This document shows positions 10,214 through 39,953 of a stretch of DNA of 64,000 bases, one piece after another. The position numbers and the translations under genes were made by a program. The stretch spans positions 1,686,089 to 1,750,088 of the forward strand of contig OY763415.1 in assembly GCA_963667565.1 (NCBI GenBank), read 5' to 3'. A model generated the notes under the pieces. The model was not told where the DNA came from, made no database searches, and saw only the letters and a program-made list of their open reading frames with translations. Numbering within the stretch: the first letter of the stretch is position 1; each line of letters opens with the position of its first letter. Source of the DNA: Acholeplasmataceae bacterium (GTDB lineage Bacteria; Bacillota_I; Bacilli_A; Acholeplasmatales; Acholeplasmataceae).

Positions 10214-10276
10214 AAATTGGGGAATGATTGCACTTATAAGTTGAAATATACGCGACATTTAAGTGTTGCGTTTTTT
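10214..10276 (+). promoter_or_regulatory. Conserved leader/attenuator-like element, copy A
   Basis: GGGAATGatTGCACT, then hairpin cgcgaca/tgttgcg + T6; homologous to 20161-20240 and 39879-39953. Confidence 0.6.
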
Positions 10277-10297
10277 CATTTAAAAAATGGTGGGATA

Positions 10298-13200
10298 ATG
10301 AAAAACATTATAAAAAATATAATTGAACACAATAAAAAGAATTTTTTATTTCTTTTGGATGCTCCTACGGGTTTAGGCAAAACAGAAGCATCATTGGATT
10401 TCATGAAAGAATTTCTAGAAAATAAAATTGATACTGATAAAAAACAAATAATATTTATAACTAATCTAAAGAAAAATTTGCCATATGAAAGATTTATTCA
10501 CAAATATAGTATGTATGCTAATGCAATATTAAATTTAAAACCCAATTCAGATATTGTAATTGAAAATTTCATTAAAATCAAAGAATTAATTCCATCAACA
10601 ATTAAAAAGAGTGAAGAATATAAAGAATTGGATTCAGACCTTAAGCAATTAAATTTAGAGAACGACGAATCTAAAAGATTTATAACAAGTAAAATAGAAA
10701 GAATCTCAGAACCAAATTTTAGAAAAATGATTAAGAAAACATTATTTCAGGAGCAAAAAGATAAAGAGGAGGTATATAAAAAAAACTTGTGGTTAAAAGC
10801 AATTTATCCCGCTTCAAATTTAAGTGAATTCAAAATTATTTTTTTATCAACAGATAAATTTTTATCACCAATAGATCCAATTTGGAAAAAGCCTTATTAT
10901 TTTTATGAAAAAACATTCATAAAAAATATTATATTAATTATTGATGAATACGATTCAAGTAAGAAAACATTTTTGAATCATATTATTGATGATGGGCTTT
11001 TAAGAGAAATTGATTTGATACAATTGTTTAGTCAAATCTATCTTTCGTTAAAACATAAAATGCTCCCCAATGATTTTTATAAGGCATCTAAGCAAACAAT
11101 CAATAACTCAATCCATAAAGAGAACGCCATACATTTTATTGTCGATAAAAATATTGAAGTGTTTGAAAACGTATATAATAAGTATCATCTTAAGTATGTA
11201 TTTAAAGCAAAAGACTTAACAAAAAAAGCCTTTATTTTTAATGATAAACATTCACAATTGGTAACAAATCAATATAAAAAAGGTAATTTATATGCACACT
11301 TTGATGCAGAATCCAATTCTAATATAATTATTAAGTCAAGCAATGATAATAGTGAATCTTTACCAATTATTTTGAAAGATATTAGATGGGCATTAATCCA
11401 TTTCATAAATGGTATACGAATTATTGCAAATAATTATTATGAATACCAAATAGATTTTCATGTTGACAACAAAAAAGATAAGGTAACAAAACAAGAGTCA
11501 ATTTATTCTGTATTGGATCTATTTAATCTCGATAAAAGATATAAAGAGATACTTTTCAACAAAGTATTACTAGGAAATCTAAGCGAAGGTTTTGATTTAA
11601 CAAACCCATATAGTTTTTATAAACAAGGTATTAACTTCATCGAAATAGAAGATGGTAATGATCATGATTTGCAATCTAAGTTCCACTTATTTGATTTTAA
11701 TACCACACCTGAAAAAATATTATTAGAGTTAGCAAACACATCTATGGTTATTGGCTTATCAGCGACAGCTAAAATTCCGACAATAGTTGGTAACTTTGAT
11801 AATGAATATCTTAAAAACGAATTAAAAGATCATTTCATTGAATTAAAAGATCATCATTATGAAACGATTCGTAGACAATTTAATGACTTACAATTAAATT
11901 ACATCAAACAAAAAATGCACATAGAGATTATAGATGCATATAACCAGCTGGAGCATAATGATATTATTGATAAAATAACTACAGAATGTAATTTAGATAT
12001 AAGTAAATGGAGCACAGATCCTCAAATAGAGAAATATTATTTAGAAGTTTGTTTAAAAGTAGCAAAAGCATATTTTGATTTCTCAAATAGTTCTAAAAGC
12101 GTTGCAGGTATATGCTTTTTAAATGGCTTTTTCAGTGAAGATTCAAATTATGATGTATTGATATTATCTGATTTATTAAAGCAAATTCAACATAATAATC
12201 AGGTAGATATTGAATACTTCAAATTGACCTCTCAAAACTTTGATGAAGAGTTATTAAAAATACATAATAAAATAATTAACGAGGGTAAAGGATTTGTTTT
12301 AACAACATATAATACAGTTGGATTAGGAAAAAATATTCAATTACAAAGGAACATAAATGGTGTTAAAATCGAACAAGATTTCGACTTTATTTATTTACTA
12401 GAACCTACAAATATAATCAGTGATATTTATGCTGATTCCGATAATAAATACAAAGATTTATCAAGAGTTCTATTTGAACAAGAGTATCTAAAAAGAAGCG
12501 GCTCTATTAGTAAAAACAAATTTATAAAAAATATAGAAAATGCTTTTAGGATGACACTTCGACATGATAAAAGCTATATAAATAAAATGAACAAGGACAA
12601 CTCAATACATGTTTCTCAAATTATTATTCAAGCTATTGGAAGAATTACGAGATCTAGAACTCCTAATACTCAAACAACGATATTACTAGATAATGCGGTT
12701 GTCAAACATATGCAAGCTGCAGAAAATCATTTAAATTATGACTTTCTAAATTGGTATGTAAGAAAAATATTATCATTGAAAATTGCTCAAAATGTTATGG
12801 ACAATAAGACATTTACAGATATAAATAGAAGTGCATCATTAAGAATCGAAAAATTAAGTTATAAACTTCGAACAAAAAGCAATGCAGCTAGAGAAGAATG
12901 GAGAAGATTAAAAGATTATATATTGAAAAATCCAACAACAGATTTTCCACTTTTAGAATACAAAAATTTATATATAGAAATGCCGGAAAGAGTTGATAAG
13001 TATTGGTACCAATACATTAATTCTTTTGCAGTTAAGAATCTTTCTTTGAGTGATTTTACAGATTATAGTGAAGTTTCTGATGAAAGTTGCGAATTAATTA
13101 AAATGGTTGAAAACAATCTAATAAAAGAGGAATTCGAAAATGAAAAAATTCCTACTAAATTCTATAGAGGAAAGCACATAATTCTACCATCAGTTTACCA

Positions 13201-13579
13201 ACAAACTTATTTAGGTGCATTGGGAGAAAAAATATTAGAAACCATCGTATATTTATATACAGGAGAAAAACTACAAGAAGTAAAAAATTATAAAGTATAT
13301 GAATATGCAGATTTCCAGATTGGTAATATTTATGTAGATGTAAAGCACTGGAAAAATTATCGTATTGATGACAAGGATTACAAAAATAGAATTGAGAGAA
13401 AAATATTAGAAATTAAGGAAGTTGAAAGATTTATTTTTCTTAATTTATTTAAAAGAGGAGACCACACTGTAAATGAAACTATCGATGAGAAAATTATAAC
13501 TATTCCATATATATTTGATGATAATGGGAAATTAGATGATGAAATGGTGAATAAATTCTTAAATTTGATACAAATGTAA
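10298..13579 (+). CDS. SF2 helicase fused to a C-terminal PD-(D/E)xK-like nuclease
   Basis: APTGLGKT, IIDEYD, GLSATA, QAIGRITR; C-terminal ADFQ...YVDVKHW; ATG 10298 preferred because the TTG at 10217 lies in the leader element. Confidence 0.75.
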   Translation: MKNIIKNIIEHNKKNFLFLLDAPTGLGKTEASLDFMKEFLENKIDTDKKQIIFITNLKKNLPYERFIHKYSMYANAILNLKPNSDIVIENFIKIKELIPSTIKKSEEYKELDSDLKQLNLENDESKRFITSKIERISEPNFRKMIKKTLFQEQKDKEEVYKKNLWLKAIYPASNLSEFKIIFLSTDKFLSPIDPIWKKPYYFYEKTFIKNIILIIDEYDSSKKTFLNHIIDDGLLREIDLIQLFSQIYLSLKHKMLPNDFYKASKQTINNSIHKENAIHFIVDKNIEVFENVYNKYHLKYVFKAKDLTKKAFIFNDKHSQLVTNQYKKGNLYAHFDAESNSNIIIKSSNDNSESLPIILKDIRWALIHFINGIRIIANNYYEYQIDFHVDNKKDKVTKQESIYSVLDLFNLDKRYKEILFNKVLLGNLSEGFDLTNPYSFYKQGINFIEIEDGNDHDLQSKFHLFDFNTTPEKILLELANTSMVIGLSATAKIPTIVGNFDNEYLKNELKDHFIELKDHHYETIRRQFNDLQLNYIKQKMHIEIIDAYNQLEHNDIIDKITTECNLDISKWSTDPQIEKYYLEVCLKVAKAYFDFSNSSKSVAGICFLNGFFSEDSNYDVLILSDLLKQIQHNNQVDIEYFKLTSQNFDEELLKIHNKIINEGKGFVLTTYNTVGLGKNIQLQRNINGVKIEQDFDFIYLLEPTNIISDIYADSDNKYKDLSRVLFEQEYLKRSGSISKNKFIKNIENAFRMTLRHDKSYINKMNKDNSIHVSQIIIQAIGRITRSRTPNTQTTILLDNAVVKHMQAAENHLNYDFLNWYVRKILSLKIAQNVMDNKTFTDINRSASLRIEKLSYKLRTKSNAAREEWRRLKDYILKNPTTDFPLLEYKNLYIEMPERVDKYWYQYINSFAVKNLSLSDFTDYSEVSDESCELIKMVENNLIKEEFENEKIPTKFYRGKHIILPSVYQQTYLGALGEKILETIVYLYTGEKLQEVKNYKVYEYADFQIGNIYVDVKHWKNYRIDDKDYKNRIERKILEIKEVERFIFLNLFKRGDHTVNETIDEKIITIPYIFDDNGKLDDEMVNKFLNLIQM

Positions 13580-13718
13580 TTGGTTAGGATTAGACTAAAA
13601 TATATTATTTTCAAGATTTATGTGATTTATAGATTGAGAAATGAAACTAGATAGATAATAGGGTTTAAAATTTAGTATGGAGAAGTATACTAACATCACA
13701 TTATAGATTGGGGAAAAA

Positions 13719-16700
13719 ATGAAAAATTATAAGATTTGTCCAAAATGCTATAGAATACACGATGGCGATGATATTAAATGTAAATTTAAAGATTGTGAAT
13801 ATTCTTTAGAAAATGTGCAATTTGCTACACAAAATGAATTAGTTGAGAATAAAAAGCAAAAAATAATTAATAAATATATCGAAGAAATTGATGATGTAAT
13901 AGCGGTAAGTAAGTCTTCATCTAATATTATTGATGTTTATAGAGGTAGGATTCTATTAGAATTACTCCAAAATGCCCATGATGCAGCAGTAAATCATAGA
14001 GATAAAGACTCATATGTCAAAATAACATTTTTCGATGGAGTTTTAGAGTTTTATAATAGTGGTACACCATTTCACTATGACGGGGTTAGAAGTTTGTTCA
14101 CTCCACATTTTTCGATTAGAGAATTTGAAGATGAAGATACGGATGATCATGAGAAAAAGAACGAAGACTATATTGGTCATTTTGGTCTTGGATTTAGATC
14201 TATTTTGAATTGGGGAAATGAAATAAGTATTATCAGTACATCGGGGCTTTCTATTCATTATTCGCCAAAAAATGTGCTTGATATGCAAAAACGGGTTAAA
14301 GAAAATCAAGATCAGTATAATAGGATAATTGGATTTGCAGATGGTAGCAAAAGTACACTATTTGAAAAATATCCAATACCTCTTTTGACTGCTCCATCAA
14401 TTATTGATGATAAAATTAAAGATGATAAATATGATACAATGATAAGAATTGTTTGTTTTGAAGATAAATATGATGAAATATATGAAGAATTATCAAAGTT
14501 TAGTAGTCAAGATGTTGCATTCTTAAATATATTCAAAGAAATTATTATTCAAACTGAACATATAAATAAAACCATAAATCGGAAAAAACTTAATGTCTCT
14601 GAAATCATTATTAATGATGAGAAAATTCAAAAAAGTGTTATTTCATTTCTCACGGGTAGCATTCTTGATACTTATACTAGATTTAAAATATCAGGTTATA
14701 ATAATGATTTAGGTATGATATATAATTGTGCAATTGCTTTTTCAAATCATGACTTGGAAAAAAATAATATAAGCATCTATTTTAAAACAAAACATGAAAA
14801 CAAATTCCCCTTTTTAGTACATGGGTCATTTGATCTTAGGGAAGATCGCGAATATATAAAAGAAACGCCTAATACCTTATATGTTTTTGAAAAATTATCA
14901 AAACTTATAGTTGATGTAATTCTAAACGAAAAACTAAACCTTGATCATGTAAATTATGAGGCATTAGAGATGCTTGTTTGTGATACTGATTTCTTTCCGT
15001 TTAGTCAAACCTATAGGTTTTATATGGATTATATAAAGAAACAAAAATGTTTTCCAACCGTAAATAATAAGTATAGATTGAATGATTCTTCTAATGTATT
15101 AGTCTTCCCATTTAATGAACCTAGATTATCTTTAATTTTAAAAGGCAACAAATTTGATGATTTACTAATCTTTACAGAGAACGAAAAAATAATCAGTTTT
15201 TTAAAGTTACTTGATGTTGAATTTTATACACAAAATCATTTAGCGGATTTAATTGATGAAACTATATTAAACTATACATTAGAAGATAAAACTAAACTTA
15301 TTTACTATTTTATTAAGATATTTAATAAAACTAGTGATAACTACCCGAAGCTTATTGTAGATACAAATAATCAAAGCGTTCTAGACTCTAATGGTCTATT
15401 TAATCTTCCAACCACACAGGAATTAAGAGAACTACCTGAGTTTATTCAATTAAAATTTATTAATGAAAAAATGTGGAATGATTTGCAATCAAATGAATGT
15501 TTTAATATAACTAGTGTTAATAAAGTTAGAGGTTTATTAGAAAGAATTGAACCTTTTGGCGTAGATGAATATAGTTTCACGAAGATTTTTCCTCTGATAA
15601 AAAAAGAGTTTGAAAGTCAAACTATTACTAATGATCAAAAAAAGGTCGTCATCAAGTGGTTACAAAAATATCTAATTAACAACATTGAAAATTTTTCATC
15701 TGTTTTTCCAATTTTGCAAAAAGAAATGTCTGATTCAAATTATGGGGAAGTTTTTATAAAAGAAAATCATCAATGGCTTTTTGATTTATTTTCTAATCAT
15801 CAAGAGGTTAAAGAATATCGCGAATCTAAAAATATAATTGTTTTATGTAAAGTAAAGAAGAAAATAGTATTATCAGATGCTATAAACACTTATTTTCCAG
15901 ATTATTATGATAATAAAGTGGGTTATGCCTTATTAAAATACGCTGATGTTGACTTTTTGGCTGGCACTTCATATTATGGTTTTAAAAACACTGATTTGAA
16001 TCTAATTAAAGAATATTTTATATGGTTGGGTGTTAATATATTTCCGAAAAAAATAATTATAGATATAAAAAATACAGATTTCCTTGAATATGGAAAGTAT
16101 TGCTTTGGTTCAGATTACGACACCTTATTGAAAGATAAATTTAGTATAAGCAATTTAGGAAGAGTTGAAACAATTCAAAATATTGATACTATTTTAACCA
16201 AATCGAACTTTAATGAAATTATGTATTGGTTGTTATTGATGGATGGTAAAGAAAAATCATTTTTATCAAATGAAAATGAAACTTATCCAGATTCATTTCT
16301 TAATTATTACTACGCATATAGTCAAAATTATCAAAGAAAAGATACGTTAAGAAAGACATATAAACAGCTTAAAAATTATATTAGATATAAATTCTATACC
16401 GCAAAATGGTTAGAAGTAGAAGACTCAAACATTAAAATTGCTCCCAAATCAGCCACATTTTCCACATATGGTTTGGCTCCAATGTTTTATAAACCTAAAA
16501 TTGATTATAGACATTTCAGTAAAATAAACCTTAGCTGGACAGAAGAAAAAATTAATACAATTTTGGTAGATATTGGAGTTAATTCACGGATTGGTTTATT
16601 GGATGAAAGAAGAAAGTATAAGTTGTTAAGTAATTTGGAAGAATTAGATAAAACTTGTAGGTTTACTAGATCAATTTATAATGAAGTAATTAAAGATAAC

Positions 16701-18698
16701 GAAACCAGTGTAGAAGAACTTAATAAAAGTCTTTTTAATACTGAAGAATACATAGATTTTATAAATAATGGAAAAATTGCTGTGATTAAAAATTATAGGA
16801 AACAATATGTTCCTGTAAAAGAATCATATTATGCAGATAATCGAGAACTTTGCGAAGGTATCACTAAAAATATAAACATATTGGATTTGGAATTGAGAAA
16901 AGGTGTTGATCAAGTGACAACGATACTTGGAACACAAAAACTTCAAGACTTTGATATTAAATTTGTGAATGAACCCAAATGGAGTGAGTTAAATCAAGAG
17001 TTTAAAGAGAAATATTTAGAGCTACTCCCCTTTATTATTGTAAAAAGAAATCAAAAAATTAAGAATATAAAACCCGAGATTGCGAAATTAAAAAATTGCG
17101 AAGTTAAATTAATTTTAAATGAAACAATTAGTTATAAAGTGGATAACGAAACAATTAAATACCAGTTAGAGGACTTTGAATACATCTATTTTGATAAGTT
17201 AAATAAAGGATATATTGTTGCACCAACTAGATTTAAAACGTGCGAAGATTTGTTTAATAATCGAGAGTTTGCTGATTCGTTAGCAGAACTCATTACTTTA
17301 ATTTTAGGCGTATATGATGGGAAAGAAAGTTATAGAGAATTTATAGGCTTATCAAACGAGGATAGAGAAAGAACAGTAATAAAAGACTATAATTTGAATG
17401 GAATAGAAATCCTTCAAACAATACGAATAGAATTTAATATCACTATGAGTAGAAAAACTATATTTTGGAATACAATCAAGCAGTTAATTGGAAAAAACAA
17501 ATTTGCAGGTATTTCTAAACAATATATTGATAATGATAATATTAATTATGAAGATTATTCAGATATAAATAATATTCAACTGTTTATGCAGCTGTTTCAA
17601 CAAATTAAATTGGATTTCGATCAATTTAATTCAAATTGCAAATATCAAATTAGATCTGAAAAATACTGGCAAGAGAACTATGAAATAATTAAAAATAAAT
17701 ATAAAGATAATTATAAATCTTATCTATATTTGCAAAGAATATTTAATATAAAATCAATGGAAGATGTACAAAAATTTTATAAAGATGTACAAGATTTTCA
17801 ATTTAGTAGATTTTCAACTTATAATTCTCCTTTAAAATCACCAATATCTGAGTATTTATATAATACATTTAAAGTTAACTTAAAAACATTAGAAAAGGAA
17901 GAAGTGCTTGATTTTGACACTATTATTCAAACCAATATAAATCAATATAATAATGACCATCCAGAAAAGTATCATAAAATTGTTAAGATAAAAGCTAAAG
18001 AAGAGATTATGCGTTTTGCACTATTAAATAAAATTGATTTACTAGAAATAAATGAAAATAGCAATGAAGATAAGTCAAAAAATGCAAAAGCCATATTAAT
18101 CAATTATAATGAACTTGATGATGAAGCTGATAGAGCGTCCAAAGCACACCAAATCAATGCCGATAACATTCAATCAATGATTAGTAAAGATAATAAGTCT
18201 AATAAAGATAATGAGAATCATTTACCGAAATCTAACAGTTCTGATGCAGATGATATTAACCAAAGAAAACTGGAAAATGGTTATTTGGCAGAAAGGTTTG
18301 TTTATAATCAATTAGTAAATGAAATGGAAGATTATAATGTAAAATGGATATCTAAATACTCTTATTATGGTATAGGTAATAAAGAATATAACGATAATGC
18401 TCACTATGATATAGAATACTATGACAAAAATGGTAAACATCATTATATCGAAGTTAAATCATCAAGTGATGCGAATATTAGAATTGAAATATCGAAAGAA
18501 GAGGTTGAGTTTGGACTTTCACATAAACAAGAATATGACATATATTATATTCGTATAAAAGAAAGAAAAATTCAAAGTGATCCGAGTAAATTTGAAAAGA
18601 TTTTTGTCTTTGATAAACTACAAAATTTCTTAGAAAACGATAAGTTTTCTGTTGATTACAAAACATTCATACTTAAGGGAAAGATTAAGAAAAATTAA
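13719..18698 (+). CDS. Sacsin-like GHKL ATPase with C-terminal DUF3883 (NO VEIN) nuclease-like domain
   Basis: ELLQNAHDA, YNSGTPF, IGHFGLGFRS; C-terminal GYLAE...HYDI...YIEVKSS; N-terminal CPKC..C..C. Confidence 0.8.
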   Translation: MKNYKICPKCYRIHDGDDIKCKFKDCEYSLENVQFATQNELVENKKQKIINKYIEEIDDVIAVSKSSSNIIDVYRGRILLELLQNAHDAAVNHRDKDSYVKITFFDGVLEFYNSGTPFHYDGVRSLFTPHFSIREFEDEDTDDHEKKNEDYIGHFGLGFRSILNWGNEISIISTSGLSIHYSPKNVLDMQKRVKENQDQYNRIIGFADGSKSTLFEKYPIPLLTAPSIIDDKIKDDKYDTMIRIVCFEDKYDEIYEELSKFSSQDVAFLNIFKEIIIQTEHINKTINRKKLNVSEIIINDEKIQKSVISFLTGSILDTYTRFKISGYNNDLGMIYNCAIAFSNHDLEKNNISIYFKTKHENKFPFLVHGSFDLREDREYIKETPNTLYVFEKLSKLIVDVILNEKLNLDHVNYEALEMLVCDTDFFPFSQTYRFYMDYIKKQKCFPTVNNKYRLNDSSNVLVFPFNEPRLSLILKGNKFDDLLIFTENEKIISFLKLLDVEFYTQNHLADLIDETILNYTLEDKTKLIYYFIKIFNKTSDNYPKLIVDTNNQSVLDSNGLFNLPTTQELRELPEFIQLKFINEKMWNDLQSNECFNITSVNKVRGLLERIEPFGVDEYSFTKIFPLIKKEFESQTITNDQKKVVIKWLQKYLINNIENFSSVFPILQKEMSDSNYGEVFIKENHQWLFDLFSNHQEVKEYRESKNIIVLCKVKKKIVLSDAINTYFPDYYDNKVGYALLKYADVDFLAGTSYYGFKNTDLNLIKEYFIWLGVNIFPKKIIIDIKNTDFLEYGKYCFGSDYDTLLKDKFSISNLGRVETIQNIDTILTKSNFNEIMYWLLLMDGKEKSFLSNENETYPDSFLNYYYAYSQNYQRKDTLRKTYKQLKNYIRYKFYTAKWLEVEDSNIKIAPKSATFSTYGLAPMFYKPKIDYRHFSKINLSWTEEKINTILVDIGVNSRIGLLDERRKYKLLSNLEELDKTCRFTRSIYNEVIKDNETSVEELNKSLFNTEEYIDFINNGKIAVIKNYRKQYVPVKESYYADNRELCEGITKNINILDLELRKGVDQVTTILGTQKLQDFDIKFVNEPKWSELNQEFKEKYLELLPFIIVKRNQKIKNIKPEIAKLKNCEVKLILNETISYKVDNETIKYQLEDFEYIYFDKLNKGYIVAPTRFKTCEDLFNNREFADSLAELITLILGVYDGKESYREFIGLSNEDRERTVIKDYNLNGIEILQTIRIEFNITMSRKTIFWNTIKQLIGKNKFAGISKQYIDNDNINYEDYSDINNIQLFMQLFQQIKLDFDQFNSNCKYQIRSEKYWQENYEIIKNKYKDNYKSYLYLQRIFNIKSMEDVQKFYKDVQDFQFSRFSTYNSPLKSPISEYLYNTFKVNLKTLEKEEVLDFDTIIQTNINQYNNDHPEKYHKIVKIKAKEEIMRFALLNKIDLLEINENSNEDKSKNAKAILINYNELDDEADRASKAHQINADNIQSMISKDNKSNKDNENHLPKSNSSDADDINQRKLENGYLAERFVYNQLVNEMEDYNVKWISKYSYYGIGNKEYNDNAHYDIEYYDKNGKHHYIEVKSSSDANIRIEISKEEVEFGLSHKQEYDIYYIRIKERKIQSDPSKFEKIFVFDKLQNFLENDKFSVDYKTFILKGKIKKN

Positions 18699-20010: not shown

Positions 20011-20108
20011 GCATTGTTTATACTACAATGATTAAGAAGTAACAGATATAAAATGCATTGCCTGTAATACAGGTCATTTATTCTTTCATTTAGTTTTTAA
20101 AATTATAA

Positions 20109-20137
20109 TTGTCAAAATTAAAATAAACAAGTATAAT
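20109..20137 (+). promoter_or_regulatory. Sigma-70/SigA promoter
   Basis: ttgtca-N17-tataat directly upstream of leader element B. Confidence 0.65.
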
Positions 20138-20160
20138 TAAGATATAAATCATATGCATCA

Positions 20161-20240
20161 AGAATTGCAATTAGGGGAATGAGTGCACTTGAAATGTAAG
20201 TTATACATGAAGACGACATTTTAGTGTCGTCTTTTCTTTT
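20161..20240 (+). promoter_or_regulatory. Conserved leader/attenuator-like element, copy B
   Basis: GGGAATGagTGCACT, then hairpin aagacgaca/tgtcgtctt + T-rich tail. Confidence 0.6.
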
Positions 20241-20545: not shown

Positions 20546-20699
20546 CATATTTAATATTCGAATCATTAGTCTTTTTATATTTCTTATAAATGATAGACTG
20601 ATCTAATATTAAGTGATATACTAACAACAAACGGTCGAATTGAAATATATATAACTATTTCAATCAAAAATCAACTTAAGGATTAGTGTGAGAAAAAAT

Positions 20700-21386
20700 A
20701 TGGACATAAAAAAAGATATCATTGGAATTGTAGGAGGTATGGGATCCTACGCTACTTTAAATATATTTAAAAGAATTTTGGATTCTTTTGAAGCAAAAAA
20801 AGAATGGGATAGACCTAGAATTATCATCGATAATAATTGCACTCTCCCTTCTCGTTCAAGAGCGTTATTATATCATGAAAAATTTGAAGAAGTTGCTCAT
20901 GGTTTAGCAAATAGTGTAAAACACTTAATTGATGCAGGGGCGAATATCATTATTCTTGGCAGCAATACAGGACATTTGTTTTTAGATGAGATTTATAAAA
21001 GAGTGCCAGAATCAAAAAAATATATCGTTAATTTCATAGAATTATTAGGTAGAGACGTTGCAGCTAATCATGTTGATGAAATATTACTCTTAGGAACTGA
21101 AGCTACAGTTGATTTTAATATATATAAACACTTTTTAAAGGATATCAATGTAGTGACGCCGTCACAAGAAAAAGTTGAAGAAATTGACTATTTTATCGAG
21201 ATTGTAAAACAAAATATCATAAAAGATAGTGATTATGATAAATTTAAAAATTTATTATTAAGTTTTGAGAATAAGAATATTGTTTTGGGTTGTACAGAAT
21301 TACCAATCATGTTTGAAAAAATAAAAGGAGAAATTGACAAAAATATTTTTGATCCAATCAATTCGTTTATAAAATATATTAAATAG
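20700..21386 (+). CDS. Aspartate/glutamate racemase family protein
   Basis: IGIVGGMGSYAT and LGCTELP; first catalytic motif reads GSNT rather than xCNT. Confidence 0.85.
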   Translation: MDIKKDIIGIVGGMGSYATLNIFKRILDSFEAKKEWDRPRIIIDNNCTLPSRSRALLYHEKFEEVAHGLANSVKHLIDAGANIIILGSNTGHLFLDEIYKRVPESKKYIVNFIELLGRDVAANHVDEILLLGTEATVDFNIYKHFLKDINVVTPSQEKVEEIDYFIEIVKQNIIKDSDYDKFKNLLLSFENKNIVLGCTELPIMFEKIKGEIDKNIFDPINSFIKYIK

Positions 21387-21399
21387 AGGGATAAAATTT

Positions 21400-21795
21400 A
21401 TGAAAAAAGTGTTAACATTTGGGGTATTTGATTATTTGCATTATGGTCATTTAAAACTTTTTGAACGTGCTTTGGCATATGGTGATTATTTAATTGTTGC
21501 AGTTCAAAAAGATGAAGAAATTCATAAGACTAAGCCTGAAGCAATCATGCTTTATGATTTAGAAAAGCGTATGGAATTTATAAGTGCTATTAAGTATGTC
21601 AACGAAACGATTCCATATACTCAAGTAGATCAAGATATTCAACAAATAGATTTTGATGTTTTAGTTTTAGGTGGCGATCAAAATCATCCTGGATTTCAAA
21701 GAGCATTTCAATGGGCAGAAAAAAACAACAAGGAAATCATCAGATTGGAGAGAACACAAGGCATTAGTTCATCACAAATTAAAGGGGGTAATTAA
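21400..21795 (+). CDS. TagD-like cytidylyltransferase
   Basis: TFGVFDYLHYGH (HxGH) and RTQGISSS. Confidence 0.88.
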   Translation: MKKVLTFGVFDYLHYGHLKLFERALAYGDYLIVAVQKDEEIHKTKPEAIMLYDLEKRMEFISAIKYVNETIPYTQVDQDIQQIDFDVLVLGGDQNHPGFQRAFQWAEKNNKEIIRLERTQGISSSQIKGGN

Positions 21796-22772: not shown

Positions 22773-22931
22773 ATCAAAAATACGCTTTTGTTTTCTTGAT
22801 TTTTGAATTTAAGGCTAATGAATCATAAGATTTAAACTATTTGTGAAGATATATATATGCAGAAATAAAGTAGCATATATCGACATATTCTCGCGAACAA
22901 TGGATAATATATAAAATATAGGTGGGGAATC

Positions 22932-26273: not shown

Positions 26274-26741
26274 ATGAAATATTATTTAGTTACATGTAAG
26301 TTTGGACACGTGGGCAGAGATAAGTATCTCCCATTAGACATTCCAATTATTGCAGATTCAATTAAAGAAGCTAGTTTTTATGCAAAAAATAAAGGTGGCG
26401 TAAAAAAAGATCATAAGGATTGGTGTTTAAGAGGACCTATAGAGGTTAGTAAAGAAATATTTGATAATGCTTTGCTTTCTTTTAAAAATGATATCTATTT
26501 TGAAAAGCATAGTAGACAACGGTTATATTTATTTGAAGATAGACTGATTGATGAAAAAAATTACACGAGAATTAACAACAGCAAAACAAACACTAAAATA
26601 TATAAGAAAAAACGAAGTAAAAGAGTTGTTGAATTTAGAAGAAGGAAACAATCAGAAATCATCAAAACATTGATGAATGAACAGGTATATGCTTTGCAAC
26701 ATTTTAGAAATTCTAATGTATTAATTGGGAGGGAAAATTGA
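26274..26741 (+). CDS. Basic hypothetical protein, possibly RNA-binding
   Basis: SD aaggag; YLVTCKFGHVG...ADSIKEA N-domain; Arg/Lys-rich tail; TGATG overlap with the viperin gene. Confidence 0.75.
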   Translation: MKYYLVTCKFGHVGRDKYLPLDIPIIADSIKEASFYAKNKGGVKKDHKDWCLRGPIEVSKEIFDNALLSFKNDIYFEKHSRQRLYLFEDRLIDEKNYTRINNSKTNTKIYKKKRSKRVVEFRRRKQSEIIKTLMNEQVYALQHFRNSNVLIGREN

Positions 26742-30152: not shown

Positions 30153-31557
30153 AATGTTTAATTCATTTGAGGTAAGATATCACACATTTGAAAAAGTATC
30201 ATATGATAAATACTTGATAGCATCTGTTGTAAAAAACAGTGAGTCGAAAAATGAAGCATTACAATTTATTGATGATCTTACGGGGAAAGGTAGTTTAAAT
30301 AATCATTTCAAAAAAATATATGAAGAGATAACATATTTACCCGAAGAAGAATTAATGAAAGTTTTAAAATACTCAGAATATCCAGTACAAAGAATAGATA
30401 AATATAAATACATATATATTCCGTTATTAGATGTTTCTATTTTTAACCACAAAGTTATTCAAGGAAATATTGCAAATGATGAGATGTTTACTAGATTGTT
30501 AGTTAATAAAAATGGTACTTATATTGAATCAATATACCATCAATCAGACCCAGTCACAAATAAGGATATATATGAGGTTTTACTAGAAGAAGAATATATC
30601 AAAATATTAATTGAAGATGTTTATTGTGAAATAAACGATAATGATTTTCAAAGAATTGTATATAAAGAAAGTATGGACTTAAGTCTATATAATGGTGAAA
30701 CTTATACAAATCTTAAAAACAGCGGGTGGTTTCAATTAACAAATTCAACGTTAAATAATATCTTAAACGCACAAGATTATTATTATGAAAATGGAAATCA
30801 TTTTGGTATATATAATAATTATGTGAGAGAGTCTAAAATCGGATATAGTTGGGGACTTTACTGGATCAATGAAAGCACATTTTACTATGATAGCCCTAAA
30901 AATAATGAGATTTGTGAAAAAGTAGCTCATGTATTGTTAGAATCTGGTAGAATTAATGAGTTTAAGACCAAATCAATGATTAATATCATTAATAACACAA
31001 ATAGAGATTTACAACAAAGACTAATTAATTATATCCTTCAAAGAAAAAACTCTAAAGAACTAGCACTAATAGCGTTTATTTTAATTGATAAAGGATATGA
31101 GAAAGGCTGGGATTTAGAAGTTACTAACACGTTGTACCGATTTAAAGAAAGTGATAAACATTTAGTTGCTTTATACAAAGTTAATGCTTATATGAATTAC
31201 ACTATTGAAGAGATATTAAAAATTTATAAGTATAACAAAAAAATCCTAAACGATACCGATTTGAAGAAAGTTCATGAATATGAGAACAGTATACTTCAAA
31301 TACGAGACAGTATTAAAATCAAAATTGGCGATATTATGTCTTCCACCACAAGAGAAGATATTAAAAGTATGAAATTAAATGAAAATAATATTAAATTAAA
31401 AAAAATGATTAACGAAAAAATTGCACATAACAAAAAAGATATCCAAAAGATGGATTTGGAACAATTAAAGCAATATGCTGAAACAGTGGATCAAATGCAT
31501 AAATTATATCTTAAAGTAAATCATGAATTACAAAATTCAAAAGAGAATGAAAATTAA
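30121..31557 (+). CDS. Hypothetical protein coupled to the helicase gene
   Basis: 478-aa ORF overlapping the helicase 3' end; SD aggggg; coiled-coil-like C-terminus. Confidence 0.75.
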   Translation: MKVTVNLNLPKMFNSFEVRYHTFEKVSYDKYLIASVVKNSESKNEALQFIDDLTGKGSLNNHFKKIYEEITYLPEEELMKVLKYSEYPVQRIDKYKYIYIPLLDVSIFNHKVIQGNIANDEMFTRLLVNKNGTYIESIYHQSDPVTNKDIYEVLLEEEYIKILIEDVYCEINDNDFQRIVYKESMDLSLYNGETYTNLKNSGWFQLTNSTLNNILNAQDYYYENGNHFGIYNNYVRESKIGYSWGLYWINESTFYYDSPKNNEICEKVAHVLLESGRINEFKTKSMINIINNTNRDLQQRLINYILQRKNSKELALIAFILIDKGYEKGWDLEVTNTLYRFKESDKHLVALYKVNAYMNYTIEEILKIYKYNKKILNDTDLKKVHEYENSILQIRDSIKIKIGDIMSSTTREDIKSMKLNENNIKLKKMINEKIAHNKKDIQKMDLEQLKQYAETVDQMHKLYLKVNHELQNSKENEN

Positions 31558-31654
31558 TTGACTTTTTACCTTCTTTCATATAAAGTATGTAAGGTGCTAT
31601 TAATATAATATTAATAAATGGTATTAAATACATATAAAAAGAAGGTATATTTTC

Positions 31655-33327: not shown

Positions 33328-33928
33328 ATAGAGTGAAAGAATCCGCGTTTTTATACTTATAAAATGTGCTTTTACACATTTTAAGTTTCTTTAAAGCTAA
33401 GGATAAAGATAACTCGTTGTGATCATATTTATCCAAAATCTGATTAAAATTTTCAGGCAAGATATACTTGGGTCTTCCAAGATGCTTGCCTTTTTCTTTT
33501 GCAATTCTAATACCCTCTGCTTGTCTTTGCTTTATATTTTGTCTTTCATTTTCAGCAACAAAACTTAAAACTTGTAAAACAATATCACTAATAAACCTTC
33601 CAACTAAATTTTCTGGTTGAACGCGTGTATCTAAAAGGGGCATATCAAGAACTAAAATATCAGCATTGATATGTTTAGTGATATGCCCCCATTCTTCAAT
33701 AATCATTTCGTAATTACGACCTAACCTGTCAATACTTTTAATAATTAGTAAGTCTTTAGATTTTAGTTTTGATATTAACTTTTGATAGTTTTCTCTATTA
33801 AAATCTTTTCCACTTTGTTTGTCAATATAAATATTTTTTCTTTTAATGTCAAGTTTTTCAATTTCATCTAGTTGACGATCAATAGATTGAGTCACACTTG
33901 ATACTCTAATATACGCATATGTTGTCAT
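33326..33928 (-). CDS. Serine recombinase (resolvase/invertase)
   Basis: YAYIRVSS, DKQSGK, SIDRLGR, C-terminal HTH. Confidence 0.93.
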   Translation of the reverse strand: MTTYAYIRVSSVTQSIDRQLDEIEKLDIKRKNIYIDKQSGKDFNRENYQKLISKLKSKDLLIIKSIDRLGRNYEMIIEEWGHITKHINADILVLDMPLLDTRVQPENLVGRFISDIVLQVLSFVAENERQNIKQRQAEGIRIAKEKGKHLGRPKYILPENFNQILDKYDHNELSLSLALKKLKMCKSTFYKYKNADSFTL

Positions 33929-34021
33929 ATGTTCCTCCTGCGATAGATGTATTCAAATGTGATTTTATCATATAGTTCAGAAAAGTAGAGAATATATATA
34001 TAGATATATAAATAAAAAAAT

Positions 34022-34180
34022 ACTTCAAGTTCCATAAAGGTACACTTTTAAGGAATATCGGTTTTTAAAGATAAAGACTATATTTTAGTTAAATTGTTGA
34101 TATTTATTGATCAAATCTCTTAAAAATGATACGATCTATATATAAAACTTCAAGTTGATAAAGGTGTACCTTTAAGGAAT
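34022..34180. repeat. Two related palindromic ~35-bp sites (34022-34056 and 34147-34180), probable res subsites
   Basis: acttcaagttccataaaggtacacttttaaggaat vs acttcaagttgataaaggtgtacctttaaggaat. Confidence 0.65.
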
Positions 34181-34205
34181 GTTTTTATTAACAGAAAGAG
34201 GCAAC

Positions 34206-35039
34206 ATGCTTACACCGGTTATAAAATGGGTTGGAGGGAAAAGACAATTACTTGATGAGATCAAAAAACGCATGCCTAAACAGTACAATAGATATTTTGA
34301 ACCATTTGTTGGTGGCGGAGCATTGTTTTTAGAACTTTCCCCAAAAGAAGCGCATATTAACGATATTAATCATGATTTATATGCAATTTATAAATCTTTA
34401 CAGGATGAAGAACTATTCAAAGATCTATTATTAAGATTAGATCGGCACCAAAAAAATCATTCAGAAGAATATTATTATAAAGTTAGAGAACAAGATAGAA
34501 AAGAAAAATATGAACATACATCATTAAGTGAAAAAGCAGCTAGAGCTATTTACTTAAATAAAGCAGGATATAACGGATTATATCGTGTGAATCAAAGAGG
34601 ATACTTTAATGTGCCATCAGGTCATTACACAAAAGTGAATCTATATGATGAAATAAATATAAACAGTGTTCATGAATACATGAAGCAAAATAAAATATTG
34701 ATCACAAATAACTCTTATGAAAAAACGGTTGAAAATGCACAACAAGAAGATTTCATATATTTTGATCCACCATATGATAAATTGGAAAATAAAGCTTCAT
34801 TTACAGCATATTCAAAAAATGATTTTAATAGAGATGATCAAATAAAATTATTTAATACATTTAAAGAATTGTCTGATAAAGGCATTTATGTAATGTTAAG
34901 CAATCATAACACGGAATTTATTAGAGACTTATACAAAGATTTTAATATTCATGTTGTGTCAGCAACCCGCATGGTGAACTCTAATGCCCAAAAAAGAGGC
35001 CCTATTGAAGAAGTGATTATTACTAATTATGAGAACTAA
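34206..35039 (+). CDS. dpnM: Dam/DpnM-type GATC adenine methyltransferase
   Basis: KWVGGK, EPFVGGG, NGLYRVN, FDPPY. Confidence 0.9.
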   Translation: MLTPVIKWVGGKRQLLDEIKKRMPKQYNRYFEPFVGGGALFLELSPKEAHINDINHDLYAIYKSLQDEELFKDLLLRLDRHQKNHSEEYYYKVREQDRKEKYEHTSLSEKAARAIYLNKAGYNGLYRVNQRGYFNVPSGHYTKVNLYDEININSVHEYMKQNKILITNNSYEKTVENAQQEDFIYFDPPYDKLENKASFTAYSKNDFNRDDQIKLFNTFKELSDKGIYVMLSNHNTEFIRDLYKDFNIHVVSATRMVNSNAQKRGPIEEVIITNYEN

Positions 35040-35799
35040 ATACTATCAAGATTTAGATTTTACATTGTTATTAGGTGATGTGAATGAAACTCTAAAATCT
35101 ATTAGAAAACAAAGTATTGATATGATCTTTGCTGATCCCCCATATTTTTTATCTAATGATGGTATTACATGTCAATCTGGACAAATGGTATCTGTTAATA
35201 AGGCTTCTTGGGATCAAACAAATATGACAATTCAGGATAAACTTAAATTTAATAGAAAATGGATTAAAAGTTGTAAACGTGTATTAAAAGACACAGGTAC
35301 GATATTTATATCAGGAACACTTCATAATATCTATATTGTTGGTGTCGCATTAGAACTTGAAGGATTTCAAATCATTAACAATATTACATGGCAAAAGAAA
35401 AATCCTCCACCCCATCTTGCAAGAAAAGCTTTTACACACTCAACAGAAACCATTTTATGGGCTAGAAAGAAAAGTCAAAAATACTATTTTAATTATGATT
35501 TAATGAAATCAATGAACGAAAATAAACAAATGAAAGATGTATGGCAATATGCTATTACTAAGCAAAGCGAGAAGATATGTGGAAAGCACCCAACACAAAA
35601 ACCATTAGATTTGTTAAAAAGAATAGTGCTTGCTTCAACAAAAGAAAATGATTTGGTATTAGACCCATTTAATGGTAGCGGAACGACTGGTATTGCATCA
35701 ACTCTATTAAATAGGAAATATATAGGTATAGATATTGAACAAAAATATTTAGATGTGTCAATTTGTAGATATAAAGGGATAAAGGGGGAACAAAAATGA
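35029..35799 (+). CDS. dpnA: DpnA-type beta-class adenine methyltransferase
   Basis: FADPPYFLSNDG, HPTQKP, LDPFNGSGTT. Confidence 0.9.
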   Translation: MRTKYYQDLDFTLLLGDVNETLKSIRKQSIDMIFADPPYFLSNDGITCQSGQMVSVNKASWDQTNMTIQDKLKFNRKWIKSCKRVLKDTGTIFISGTLHNIYIVGVALELEGFQIINNITWQKKNPPPHLARKAFTHSTETILWARKKSQKYYFNYDLMKSMNENKQMKDVWQYAITKQSEKICGKHPTQKPLDLLKRIVLASTKENDLVLDPFNGSGTTGIASTLLNRKYIGIDIEQKYLDVSICRYKGIKGEQK

Positions 35800-36647
35800 T
35801 TAAAAGATCTTTTGAAGAAATGTTAAGCACACTAAAATCAAGCATTACACCTTATGATTTTTTTGTTGATTTTAATAAAGTATTTAAGAATGTTAAAGAA
35901 TTAGAGATATTATTAAATAGTATGAATTATTTGTTAGGTAAAGAAGATTTTGATCAAGCTTTCAAAGATCTATTTGAACAAAATTCAAATATTTATAAAG
36001 CAATTCCTATTCTATTAGCAACAAGAGAAAACAAAATTGAAATCTTAGAAGATAAATTAGTCATTTATGATTTTATGCATGCTCAATCTGTTGATGATTA
36101 TTTAATGTTCATTAAAAATACTAATCTCATAAAATTATTTACTAAAGATGGTGTAAAAAATTTAGTGGATTATGTTATAGGCGTTGAAGTAGGGCTTGAT
36201 ACGAATTCAAGAAAAAACAGAACAGGAACACTGATGGAAAATAAGGTGGAGAAGTTTATAAAAGATTCTGTAGTGTTCAAAGATTATATAACACAAGCAA
36301 GAATCATTGATATTAAAAACAATTTAGGCATCGATCTATCATATTTATTAGATGTTGATCAAAATAAAAGATTTGATTTTGCAGTTAAATCACAAGATAA
36401 ATTGTTTTTAATAGAAACGAATTACTATCGAACAAGTGGATCAAAACTAAATGAAACCGCAAGAAGCTATACTAAATTATCTGAAGATATTAGTAAAATA
36501 GATGATGTATATTTTATTTGGATAACAGATGGGCAGGGGTGGCTATCAACAAAAAATAATTTTGAAGAAGCATATGATCATATTGATTACCTATTTAATT
36601 TATATGATTTAGAACAAGGCATTTTGAAGGAATTATTTTTTAAGTAG
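35796..36647 (+). CDS. dpnB: DpnII-type restriction endonuclease
   Basis: GVEVGLDTNSRKNRTG, KRFDF, IETNYY..SGSKLNETARSY, WITDG. Confidence 0.9.
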   Translation: MIKRSFEEMLSTLKSSITPYDFFVDFNKVFKNVKELEILLNSMNYLLGKEDFDQAFKDLFEQNSNIYKAIPILLATRENKIEILEDKLVIYDFMHAQSVDDYLMFIKNTNLIKLFTKDGVKNLVDYVIGVEVGLDTNSRKNRTGTLMENKVEKFIKDSVVFKDYITQARIIDIKNNLGIDLSYLLDVDQNKRFDFAVKSQDKLFLIETNYYRTSGSKLNETARSYTKLSEDISKIDDVYFIWITDGQGWLSTKNNFEEAYDHIDYLFNLYDLEQGILKELFFK

Positions 36648-36693
36648 AAAAAAGAAGTTCTCATATGTATAATATATATGAGGATGATCAAAG

Positions 36694-36951
36694 ATGAATA
36701 AATTTAATTTGGCACAATATACCAAAAAAGTTATGAAAGAATTAGAAGTAGAAAATTTATATCCCACACAACTCAATATTTGTTATAAAGTTATTGAATA
36801 TTATGAAAACAATTATGGACAAGTGACAGAAAACAAAGATGAATTCATTAATTATATAGTTAATAAAATATATGAGATTTATATTGATCAAGATGAATCA
36901 GAGAGTCTTGACCTACTCATAGAAAGTATAATTAAGGAAGAAATAATTTAG
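36694..36951 (+). CDS. Small acidic hypothetical protein
   Basis: SD gagg; followed by a terminator-like inverted repeat. Confidence 0.55.
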   Translation: MNKFNLAQYTKKVMKELEVENLYPTQLNICYKVIEYYENNYGQVTENKDEFINYIVNKIYEIYIDQDESESLDLLIESIIKEEII

Positions 36952-36965
36952 TAATTAGATTAAAA

Positions 36966-37010
36966 TAAAAAGCAAAAATTATGATTTATATGATAATTTT
37001 TGCTTTTTTA
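36966..37010 (+). terminator. Terminator
   Basis: aaaaagcaaaaattat/ataatttttgcttttt inverted repeat. Confidence 0.65.
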
Positions 37011-37115
37011 TTTCTAAAATGAATAAATATTTGACAGTAGATCCAAAAAATGATCTAATTAAAATAAAGGACAACAATGCTGGGGCAATAGAGATATTGA
37101 AAGGGAATGAATTAG

Positions 37116-39011
37116 ATGAATAATTATTGGGAACTCAATGAAGTTGATGTTAATTTATTGGTAAATGACATTAAAAAGAAAAAGGTAACTATACCTTCTT
37201 TTCAAAGGGGCGTCGTTTGGAATGATAAAAAAAGAGAATTGCTGATTGAATCCATGAAGAATGGTTATCCTTTTGGATCGCTTTTAATTTATGAAGATGA
37301 AGATGGTAAGAAACAATTAATAGATGGGCTTCAAAGAAGTATGACAATGTATGGATTCTTAACAAATCCCGCATTTTATTTCAATGAAAATGATATTGAC
37401 CCGAATGTAATTAGTAAAATTATTGAATTAGCAGGATATCCAGGATCAAAAGAAGAAATTAAGAAAAAATTATATTTAATTATTCAAAATGAAATTAAAA
37501 TGAAATATCAAACAATGTCAGAACTTCAAAATTTGCAAATCTATAGTTTTGCTTCAGCAATTAGTAAAGAGCATCCTATTTTAAAAGGTAAAGAAGAAAC
37601 TATTATGAAATTAATAGAGCCATTTTTGCTAAATTTTAAAGAAAAATGCGGAAAGCTGTCATTTACTAAAATACCAGCAATTATATTTCATGGAGATGCG
37701 CAAGCATTACCAATCATTTTTGAGCGAATTAATAAAGAGGGAGTTAAGCTTAATAAATATCAAATATATGCTGCATCTTGGACAAATAGCATTAGATTCA
37801 AAATAGATAATGTCAAACTAAAGAAAATATTAAATTATGTAGCAGAAAGATACGATGCTTTAGGAAAATTAGAAGGGCTTAATAGTATTATTTATGTTGA
37901 TGACTATAATTCATCTGATTTTAAAAACAAAGGAGAAGTCAACACTTTTGAATTAGGATACGGTTTTGGGAAATTGTTAATTGAAAAGTTTCCAGAATTG
38001 TTTAATAGTTCAAATACAGATAACATGATAGACAGTGTTGGTTTCAATATAATTAATGCTTGTCTTGGACAAAAAAACTCAAAAATGAGTAGATTACATT
38101 TAGAATTAAAAAAATTTGATAATCAAACTATAAATATGTTTTTGGATAAAATTATTGAATGCACTGAACAAGTGAATTCAATTTTAGAACCATTCAGTAA
38201 ATTTAAAGGAAATAAGCGAAGCTCTAAAAAATTCAATATTGCTCATACAGAATTGCAAATAGTATCAATTATTGCTTCTTTAATGTTAATCAAATATGGA
38301 AGAATAGAAAAAAATGAATTTGAAGATTTGTTTGTAATAAACTATAGTTTTGAACAATCTAATACTGAATGGAAAGAAATAAATAAGGACTTCAAGCAAA
38401 ATGTAAGAATCTACTATTTGCTTGATATCATTAATCAAAGATGGAAAGGTACGGGAGATAAAACATTAGACAGCATCATATATAATCCAAAATACTATTG
38501 TAATCATTATCCAAAGGAATCATTAGTTACTGATTTAAAATCATGGTATCAACGAGATAAATTAAACAGAAATGAACGAGATAAAATTAAAGAACCTAAA
38601 GATTTAGAAAAATTGCTTTTAAATGTGGTTTACTTAAATGAATTTAAAGCAATTGATCAACTTGATGAATCTAAATATGATATAGAACATTTGTGCCCTA
38701 AAGAATTAATGAAAAATAAATTAAAACACTATCCTCATTTATCCTTACCTCTTAGTTCCATAGGTAATTTATGTTTGTTACCAGAATATCAAAATAGAGC
38801 AAAAAAAGATAAAACAATTTATGAAGACGCTTCATATAAAAAAACAATTAACGTTAGTGAAGTGGAAAAAAAGTTTGCTTTCACTACAGAAGAAAACATG
38901 AATTTTTTATTTATGGAAATTAATGCAGAAAAATTCAAAGAAGCATATGAAAAATTTATAGATGAGAGATTTGAAATTATAATTGAAAAAATAGCAAGTG
39001 CATTGTATTGA
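37116..39011 (+). CDS. GmrSD-like (DUF262 + DUF1524) modification-dependent restriction protein
   Basis: IPSFQRGVVW, IDGLQR, IFERIN; C-terminal DIEHLCP...SIGNLCLL...N. Confidence 0.85.
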   Translation: MNNYWELNEVDVNLLVNDIKKKKVTIPSFQRGVVWNDKKRELLIESMKNGYPFGSLLIYEDEDGKKQLIDGLQRSMTMYGFLTNPAFYFNENDIDPNVISKIIELAGYPGSKEEIKKKLYLIIQNEIKMKYQTMSELQNLQIYSFASAISKEHPILKGKEETIMKLIEPFLLNFKEKCGKLSFTKIPAIIFHGDAQALPIIFERINKEGVKLNKYQIYAASWTNSIRFKIDNVKLKKILNYVAERYDALGKLEGLNSIIYVDDYNSSDFKNKGEVNTFELGYGFGKLLIEKFPELFNSSNTDNMIDSVGFNIINACLGQKNSKMSRLHLELKKFDNQTINMFLDKIIECTEQVNSILEPFSKFKGNKRSSKKFNIAHTELQIVSIIASLMLIKYGRIEKNEFEDLFVINYSFEQSNTEWKEINKDFKQNVRIYYLLDIINQRWKGTGDKTLDSIIYNPKYYCNHYPKESLVTDLKSWYQRDKLNRNERDKIKEPKDLEKLLLNVVYLNEFKAIDQLDESKYDIEHLCPKELMKNKLKHYPHLSLPLSSIGNLCLLPEYQNRAKKDKTIYEDASYKKTINVSEVEKKFAFTTEENMNFLFMEINAEKFKEAYEKFIDERFEIIIEKIASALY

Positions 39012-39027
39012 AAGAGGAGGTATAAAA

Positions 39028-39813
39028 ATGATTGAAATAATTAAGAATCCTACATACTCTTTTTTCTTTTCACAAATTGAAGCAACTAAAAAAGAGTTAA
39101 TTATAATCACACCGGATATTGATGGAGATATACTAGAACATATACTTGCACGAAAAAATGAAAATGTATTTATTTCTTTGATTACATCACAAAATGTTGC
39201 TAAATATCTATTTAAAAAAACTAATCTTAATATATTAAATACATTGATTGATAGGCATCACAAAATCTACAACTATCAAAATTTAAATGCCAACATATAC
39301 ATATTTGATCAAAAATTAGTATGGATCACGTCAAGTGATTTGACACAAGGTGGATTAGTAACTAATTTTGAATATGGTATATTATCATCAGAAGAAAATA
39401 TTTTAAAAGAAGTTATAGTCGATTACAAATATATTATTGATGATGAGTCTTGTGGAAAAATAAAAAAAGAGCATATTAAATTTATCCAACAACAAATTGA
39501 AACTTTTGATGATACAGGTGTATCAATTGATCAAACAGGCGACTATCGATTATCAATCAAAAACTATCAAAAAACATCCGATATTTTAAAAGGATGGAAC
39601 AAACTAATTTTCGATGCTTTAGAAGAACATATTAAGAAGGATTATTTCAATTTAAATGATGTATATAAACTAGAAATGATATTTGCAATTAATTATCCTG
39701 AAAATTACCACATCAAAGACAAAATAAGACAAGTATTGCAATATTTAAGAGATTATGGATATATAAAATTTATTGATGATCAAGGTAATTATAAAAAATT
39801 ATGGACTAAATAA
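39028..39813 (+). CDS. PLD-like domain fused to a DpnI-type winged helix, with degenerate HKD motif
   Basis: SD aggagg before ATG 39028; LNANIYIFD..ITSSDLT; C-terminal YPENYHIKDKIRQVLQYLRDYG. Confidence 0.75.
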   Translation: MIEIIKNPTYSFFFSQIEATKKELIIITPDIDGDILEHILARKNENVFISLITSQNVAKYLFKKTNLNILNTLIDRHHKIYNYQNLNANIYIFDQKLVWITSSDLTQGGLVTNFEYGILSSEENILKEVIVDYKYIIDDESCGKIKKEHIKFIQQQIETFDDTGVSIDQTGDYRLSIKNYQKTSDILKGWNKLIFDALEEHIKKDYFNLNDVYKLEMIFAINYPENYHIKDKIRQVLQYLRDYGYIKFIDDQGNYKKLWTK

Positions 39814-39878
39814 TTAGTTTTTAATATTTGATTTCTATTGAAAATAATGTATTATATAATTAAGTTAATAATACAACG

Positions 39879-39953
39879 AGAATTAGTAAATTAGGGAATG
39901 TTTGCACTAAATGAGTTGATAATAAAAAGCGACTTTTTATGTGTCGCTTTTTT
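39879..39953 (+). promoter_or_regulatory. Conserved leader/attenuator-like element, copy C
   Basis: GGGAATGttTGCACT, then hairpin aaaaagcgac/gtcgcttttt + T tail. Confidence 0.6.

Follow-up and report, generated by a model that had tools for sequence, protein, structure and literature searches.

Known regulators of toxic anti-phage systems include system-linked DNA-binding proteins (CapW, BrxR, CapH/CapP) and RNAs that serve one toxin, and how cells silence these systems and switch them on is largely an open question. Protein-dependent antiterminator leader families include the BglG/LicT RAT, ANTAR, GlpP, and CsrA-bound GGA loops, and E. coli ampC is an example of an attenuator with an upstream open reading frame (uORF). 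We analyzed a 64-kb stretch of an Acholeplasmataceae genome (contig OY763415.1), called the window here, and found three copies (A, B, and C) of a leader that is a real cis-regulatory RNA of narrow distribution, apparently undescribed and tied to anti-phage operons. Covariance model (CM) searches of Acholeplasmataceae identified 15 distinct strong copies in nine genomes. The genome of the window is named G000 and other genomes G001, G002, and so on, with letters a, b, and c marking copies within a genome.

The closest described layouts are those of toxin-antitoxin (TA) loci of type III (ToxIN, AbiQ), AbiF/RCd22, and the abiD1 leader, in which a terminator limits an abortive-infection gene, as outlined in 10.1101/2025.04.15.648962. 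The leader shares with type III TA and AbiF-RCd22, as sketched there, a promoter, a short RNA, an intrinsic terminator, and a gene reached by read-through. Unlike type III TA, where a repeat array binds one cognate toxin, it is a single unit without tandem repeats in 15 of 15 aligned copies, stands before unrelated cargos, and has a candidate antiterminator. ON riboswitches of the guanidine-IV (GGAM-1) and HMP-PP classes, in the excerpts of PMC7736828 and PMC8632094, likewise combine a compact 5' domain and an embedded terminator before non-homologous genes, with possible pairing of the 5' part to the terminator region. The leader differs from them in having no Rfam match and in preceding defense rather than metabolic or transport genes, and guanidine-IV spans several phyla (PMC7736828, same excerpt) compared with two genera here. 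A small metastable hairpin competing with a terminator is also a feature of the protein-dependent antiterminator leaders. The uORFC-13-1 motif of Acholeplasma, as excerpted from PMC8632094, occurs before aroF only and codes for Phe; it comes from the same organism family and, like the leader, has a Shine-Dalgarno (SD)-like run and a possible start before a terminator. Unlike uORF attenuators, the leader has lost the start codon in 2 of 15 copies and encodes no conserved peptide.

The core GGGAATGnnTGCACT occurs exactly at 10220, 20175, and 39894, each time on the + strand, bearing out the three copies that the original prediction had placed in the window. Chance expectation for GGGAATGnnTGCACT in the window is 0.05 at <=1 mismatch, and none of 100 shuffles gave three. 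One further exact match in the 1.75-Mb genome G000, at position 4374, was rejected as a separate fourth locus, being the allele of copy B in a duplicated contig start (second haplotype); public contigs matching the region bear out the sequence and show that copy B has a second allele. TATAAT boxes are present at 10161, 20132, and 39855 as predicted, and their proposed spacing of 35–55 nt holds when measured to the GGG core and fails when measured to the starts first proposed. The true 5' ends lie 11–20 nt further upstream (10194, 20150, and 39868), and a 5' interrupted hairpin pairing with TGCAC had been overlooked. The predicted CGAC/GTCG hairpins passed a terminator scan in copies A and B; that of copy C failed, with a loop of 9 nt compared with the 3–8 allowed, though it folds at -10.5 kcal/mol. 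An AGTT box included in the prediction is common to the three window copies and is not conserved in relatives. Pairwise identity among A, B, and C is 57%–61%, and the distance from stem to start codon is 28 (A), 51 (B), and 58 nt (C). Copy C lies within an 8.2-kb resolvase-bordered segment (33340-41495) that is missing from the other haplotype.

Across the 15 copies, each is a promoter-anchored leader of ~85–95 nt with a weak 5' hairpin (P1) carrying a GGG loop, followed by an intrinsic terminator. In 12 copies a -10-like hexamer precedes the TRCAC core by 46–52 nt, and in three short-form copies by 39 nt; given this fixed distance, the leader probably forms the 5' end of the transcript to which it belongs. 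In four copies the upstream gene has a terminator of its own, and in one the preceding gene is divergent, so the leader is not merely a gene-end terminator. By folding, P1 is weak and interrupted, with a core helix of GCAA/UUGC and a GGG-rich loop. The P1 core (four pairs) and terminator (seven pairs) together have 95.8% of cells paired and eight double-change cells, a result equaled by none of 500 shuffles and compared with 21%–54% in slid controls; kinship of the sequences inflates this test. One P1 pair series runs from C-G (11 copies) through U-G (two) to U-A (two). Covariation thus supports the 5' helix and the terminator. Positions in GGG, GC, and ACU are invariant or nearly so despite identity down to 43%. 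In 8 of 15 copies, one of which has a weak SD, <=29 nt separate the terminator stem from the start codon. A promoter could not in practice fit there, so expression of these genes needs read-through.

Three covariance models were built successively, and model R2 was used for the family count. Of 148 family genomes, 18 had a match at E <= 0.02, nine of these at E < 1e-4. Strong copies occur in 5 of 10 genomes of the window's own genus and 4 of 38 genomes of a second genus. Pairwise identity among the 15 is 43%–90%; they are related by descent, and counts are therefore not independent. Weak CM matches (E > 1e-4), most of them ordinary gene-end terminators, were kept out of the 15, and the possible divergent members G135b (before a Pycsar-like transmembrane [TM] gene), G007, and G064 were dropped before pair counting. 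The exact core was found in 4 of 61 relatives, one of the four by chance; a core match in G022 was rejected as antisense inside an open reading frame (ORF). In the order as a whole, 3 of 307 genomes contain the combined pattern. The 80 non-family genomes of the order that were searched, out of 135, gave no CM match, and neither did a class sample of 136 non-family genomes; these searches scored 30–56 candidates per genome, so that distant members could be lost.

We also searched public databases and the literature. Rfam 15 gave no match at gathering score in the window, as predicted for a new family; matches at E <= 10 were at chance level, and none fell on the element in 12 homologous loci. 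The full pattern had no viral match, and 28 core-pattern loci in IMG/VR were judged to be chance, the contexts inspected having no terminator and lying in or across ORFs. Six of 25 pattern loci in GTDB are genuine (Acholeplasmataceae/Tenericutes), and 19 have no CM match. None of 26 metagenome pattern loci had a CM match, and blastn matches in plasmids and phages were at chance level only. The motif description was not found in the literature searched, which did not extend to the supplements of motif surveys, where many more motifs are listed. In main-text term searches, "Acholeplasma" appears once in PMC8632094 (for uORFC-13-1) and not in PMC11109978.

Coordinates of the leaders, their promoters, and their cargos in the window, with cargos of the copies in relatives
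Feature	Coordinates	Strand	Details
Candidate -10 boxes, copy A	10161..10178	+	TG-extended TATAAT 10161-10166; TAAAGT 10173-10178 is the slot equivalent to other copies
Leader copy A	10194..10277	+	CM 83.6 bits; P1 ~10198-10243, GGGG loop 10219-10222; U tract after the terminator stem
Terminator stem, copy A	10250-10271	+	Terminator scan passed
Copy A cargo, DdmD-like helicase, 1093 aa	10298..13579	+	PADLOC DdmD E=1e-18; ATG 28 nt past stem
Tiamat TmtA	13719-18698		Follows copy A helicase; PADLOC E=1.5e-205
Terminator of upstream eamA gene	20060-20074		Separate element, 5' of copy B promoter
Promoter, copy B	20109..20137	+	Sigma70-type TTGTCA-17-TATAAT, 11/12
Leader copy B	20150..20238	+	CM 67.6 bits; P1 ~20154-20198 (folding)
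Terminator stem, copy B	20209-20234	+	Terminator scan passed
Copy B cargo, orphan membrane protein, 87 aa	20282..20545	+	No Pfam/PADLOC/NCBIfam match
-10 boxes, copy C	39850..39860	+	TATTAT / TATAAT, overlapping
Leader copy C	39868..39955	+	CM 69.6 bits; P1 ~39874-39918, terminator ~39924-39952 (folding)
Copy C cargo 1, NYN-domain protein	40006-40851	+	Pfam NYN E=4.8e-16
Copy C cargo 2, putative HNH protein	40826-41257	+	HNH E=0.004, below cut-off
G001a first gene			DUF6119/TIGR04141
G001b first gene			DdmD-like helicase
G002a first gene			666-aa protein near "PIN-like" Atlas cluster
G002b cargo			GHKL-like ATPase + Mokosh-like helicase
G002c cargo			LRR_5 + ABC transporter
G004a first gene			PDC-S46
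G004b first gene			HIRAN/PDC-M03B, then DdmD-like
G008 cargo			CBASS cyclase + Cap15
G030 cargo			ThsB-like TIR + PDC-M50A + RT-nitrilase
G128 cargo			Two orphans + TIR-TM
G135a first gene			Mrr nuclease
G138 first gene			Phosphoesterase-STAND PDC-S60/DS8-like

PADLOC matched the first gene (E <= 1e-10) in 7 of 15 cases compared with 12 of 98 operon-first genes (Fisher p = 0.0036); the control was taken from 19 evenly spread 20-kb stretches of G000, with the stretch adjoining the island left out, and we read most of its 12 matches as housekeeping look-alikes. A defense match occurs within three genes in 10 of 15 operons, among the genes scanned. The same is true of 8 of the 9 copies that were found by a model blind to neighbors, whose cargos include CBASS, TIR, Mrr, phosphoesterase-STAND, DdmD-like, Mokosh-like, and PADLOC candidates. 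At least ten non-homologous families make up the cargos, a cyclase, a TIR protein, and ATPases among them; restriction-modification (R-M) operons are headed by none of the 15. Only three near-identical homologs were found for the 87-aa protein of copy B (best Atlas score 0.82), and no viral relatives were found for the NYN cargo. With one 90-nt leader standing before CBASS, TIR, Mrr, STAND, and helicase systems, how they are controlled becomes directly testable. As a marker for new defense genes, the leader also turns cargos of no assigned function into candidates, namely DUF6119, the 666-aa PIN-like protein, the GHKL-like ATPase, NYN+HNH, the 231-aa orphan, and the 87-aa membrane protein.

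The promoter, leader, and cargo seem to have been inserted together, as a unit, at sites where relatives have nothing. At the DUF4097-DEAD junction, G000, G004, G005, G008, and G009 have no insert, and G001 and G002 carry a promoter, a leader, and an ORF, with unrelated cargos. After hypA, the leader is kept in G002 and G004, where the first genes differ and the same Mokosh-like helicase follows. Homologs of cargo A were identified in 16 genomes, of which G000, G001, and G004 alone have the leader in the 1.5-kb flanks, and DdmD-like homologs in other genera lack it. The leader therefore tracks host lineage and not cargo, which would speak for a signal tied to the host lineage and against an antitoxin dedicated to one cargo.

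We consider it somewhat better than an even chance that the leader is a regulated two-state attenuator, portable and lineage-specific, that is common to non-homologous defense operons. The original prediction of an attenuator ahead of nuclease or defense genes stands as to its cis-acting, attenuator-like layout and falls short at copy B, whose cargo lacks defense evidence. Support for the attenuator-like reading comes from the fixed -10 distance, the terminator end, the shortage of space for another promoter in 8 of 15 copies, and the defense-type cargo in relatives. By default, P1 would sequester a conserved GRAUGAUUGC, the terminator would form, and most transcripts would stop at ~90 nt, which would keep toxic effectors low. 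In the alternative state, GRAUGAUUGC would pair with GCGACAUUU and RNA polymerase would read through. Under phage infection or stress, the balance is probably shifted by a host-lineage factor, which could be an RNA-binding protein or small molecule that recognizes the invariant GGG loop and the P1 core.

The candidate antiterminator, in which GRAUGAUUGC pairs with the terminator 5' arm and loop (GCGACAUUU), would exclude the P1/terminator state. It has 90.4% of cells paired, compared with 35%–50% when slid, and in G008 all three segments changed together, a single three-way compensatory case. Compared with 561 genome terminators, its duplex energy lies within the top 2.5% in 6 of the 15 copies and within the top 34% in all of them. 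When the nascent RNA is cut at the terminator loop, the antiterminator dominates in 4 of 15 copies and P1 in 6, with the remainder mixed, so the two states are predicted to be near each other in energy. A finely balanced two-state leader would look like this, and the modeled energies fit one without proving it. An alternative pairing of GCACU with the terminator 3' arm was rejected (90% paired but no covariation).

Several observations weigh against a regulated attenuator. Covariation of the antiterminator is not significant (137 of 500 shuffles were as high), and the antiterminator itself is weak in G030, G004a, B, and C by folding and energy rank. The stability of P1 does not exceed that of shuffles (z from +1.0 to -2.0). 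An internal promoter is possible in G008, G030, and G138, which have room or a -10 box, the U tract of G002c is decayed, and CGACA-type stems also serve as ordinary gene-end terminators in Acholeplasmataceae. The cargo of G002c, like that of copy B, lacks defense evidence. The range of the leader is narrow, with strong matches in two Acholeplasmataceae genera only and no conservation seen across distant lineages, in searches of limited sensitivity. No regulator was found among the candidates searched. CAT_RBD and CsrA are absent from G000 by profile search, for which positive controls matched, and GlpP is absent from G001, a carrier of two copies. ANTAR had no match in the genome, but no control genome matched either. 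Cas1 is absent from G000, and a CRISPR link was therefore dropped. T-box-like tRNA sensing was also set aside; the UGG before the loop is unconserved, and tRNA duplex scores had no control.

A more specific possibility, which we regard as doubtful, is a riboswitch or protein-gated switch that senses a phage-infection signal and co-induces unrelated immune systems. Candidates for the signal are a nucleotide alarmone, a change in some metabolite, and a protein of the phage. If true, this would be an RNA-level pan-defense regulon, spread by placing a portable promoter-leader before new defense genes.

The competing explanation that survives best, itself unlikely, is a fixed dampener: a portable promoter and a terminator that leaks at a constant low rate, with no switch, and a 5' hairpin that merely stabilizes the short RNA or reflects common descent. 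That the terminator and P1 core alone covary, and the antiterminator does not, is consistent with this, as are the narrow taxonomic range and the suppression of AbiF toxicity in cis by the RCd22 terminator alone (10.1101/2025.04.15.648962, in outline). A plain terminator would, however, have no need of the invariant GGG, GC, and ACU at 43% identity, and conservation extends to those letters of the terminator loop that complement the 5' core.

Slightly less plausible again is control by the ribosome, with GGGG as the SD of a mini-ORF (NUG-CAC, Met-His) whose occupancy would pick between terminator and antiterminator and so tie defense expression to host translation. GGG lies 3–6 nt before NUG in 13 of 15 copies, with CAC as the following codon in every case, and a stop is reached within four codons in 5 of the 13 NUG copies and in one UUA copy; GGGG is also used as an SD in G000, by 81–85 of 728 long ORFs. 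The UUA that replaces NUG in two copies, however, comes with a compensatory P1 change, so that pairing is kept over the start, and the ORF varies from 2 to 20 codons, ending before or past the terminator. Spacing of <=5 nt is found in ~20% of genes and UUG starts in ~5%, and any base before UG makes a start codon, so variation there is uninformative.

A role in trans for the ~90-nt terminated RNA, whether that of a type III-like antitoxin or of a regulatory small RNA (sRNA), with read-through setting the RNA-to-protein ratio, is very improbable. The promoter-RNA-terminator-toxin layout matches that outlined for ToxIN and RCd22-AbiF, and several cargos are putative nucleases (NYN, PIN-like, Mrr), but ten or more non-homologous families offer no single cognate toxin, tandem repeats are lacking, and in other genera the DdmD-like cargo is found with no such RNA. 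A stand-alone sRNA family, raised in the original prediction, is not favored, though the terminated RNA should be the main product.

A DNA element (an attC/attI-like site, mobile-element end, or repressor operator) is largely refuted: insertion of the unit at otherwise empty sites with varying cargo behind it and a GTT at the P1 3' foot of all three window copies are in its favor, but G-U wobble intermediates, like the U tract on one side only, point to RNA, the GTT is unconserved in relatives, no TIGR02249 integron integrase exceeded the cut-off in five carrier genomes (no control passed either), the leaders are not at the ends of the two variable segments (22803-31572 and 33340-41495), and inspection of the junctions by eye showed neither terminal repeats nor target duplication.

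Other leader-like elements were observed. A pair at L135:5871-5952 (G135) and L157:1501-1582 (G103) has a GATGACACAA-type core before a terminator; GATGACACAA-type elements lie upstream of a Pycsar-like TM gene and a probable methyltransferase and are possibly a sister motif. In G007 (L136:5359-5458), a partial 5' core is joined to a different terminator before DUF2130, PDC-S46, and DdmD-like genes, a possible divergent member of the leader family. A long co-oriented defense cluster stands behind a single leader in G004 (L127:1163-14095), with HIRAN, a DdmD-like helicase, unannotated 669- and 876-aa ORFs, and a Druantia E-like helicase. A Wadjet JetA gene at L180:14535-15920 (G000:C1 ~834500-835900) has no leader CM match.

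The window is a defense-rich accessory region with type I R-M, DdmD-like, Tiamat TmtA, DpnII, GmrSD, DpnI-like, and NYN+HNH genes. Positions 19082-64000 are duplicated as G000:C1:3281-31546, the contig start being a second haplotype of the contig end. The second haplotype lacks the islands 22803-31572 and 33340-41495 and has a different gene set before eamA; the latter island carries the resolvase, DpnII, GmrSD, DpnI-like, and NYN-HNH genes. Defense cargo is therefore polymorphic within the population. The type I R-M locus (487-8673) has a tyrosine recombinase between two hsdS genes that share a 71-nt direct repeat (2510-2580 and 4751-4821), and specificity shuffling is likely. A three-gene operon at 20688-22772 encodes an Asp/Glu racemase, a cytidylyltransferase, and an unannotated 325-aa protein; it also occurs in G009 at another site, the 325-aa family is patchy (33 proteins, with a Clostridia label among them), and the operon is possibly a defense or surface-modification module. 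A 236-nt intergenic direct repeat (43608-43842 and 51043-51277) has 92% identity between copies, with a weaker copy near G000:886200.

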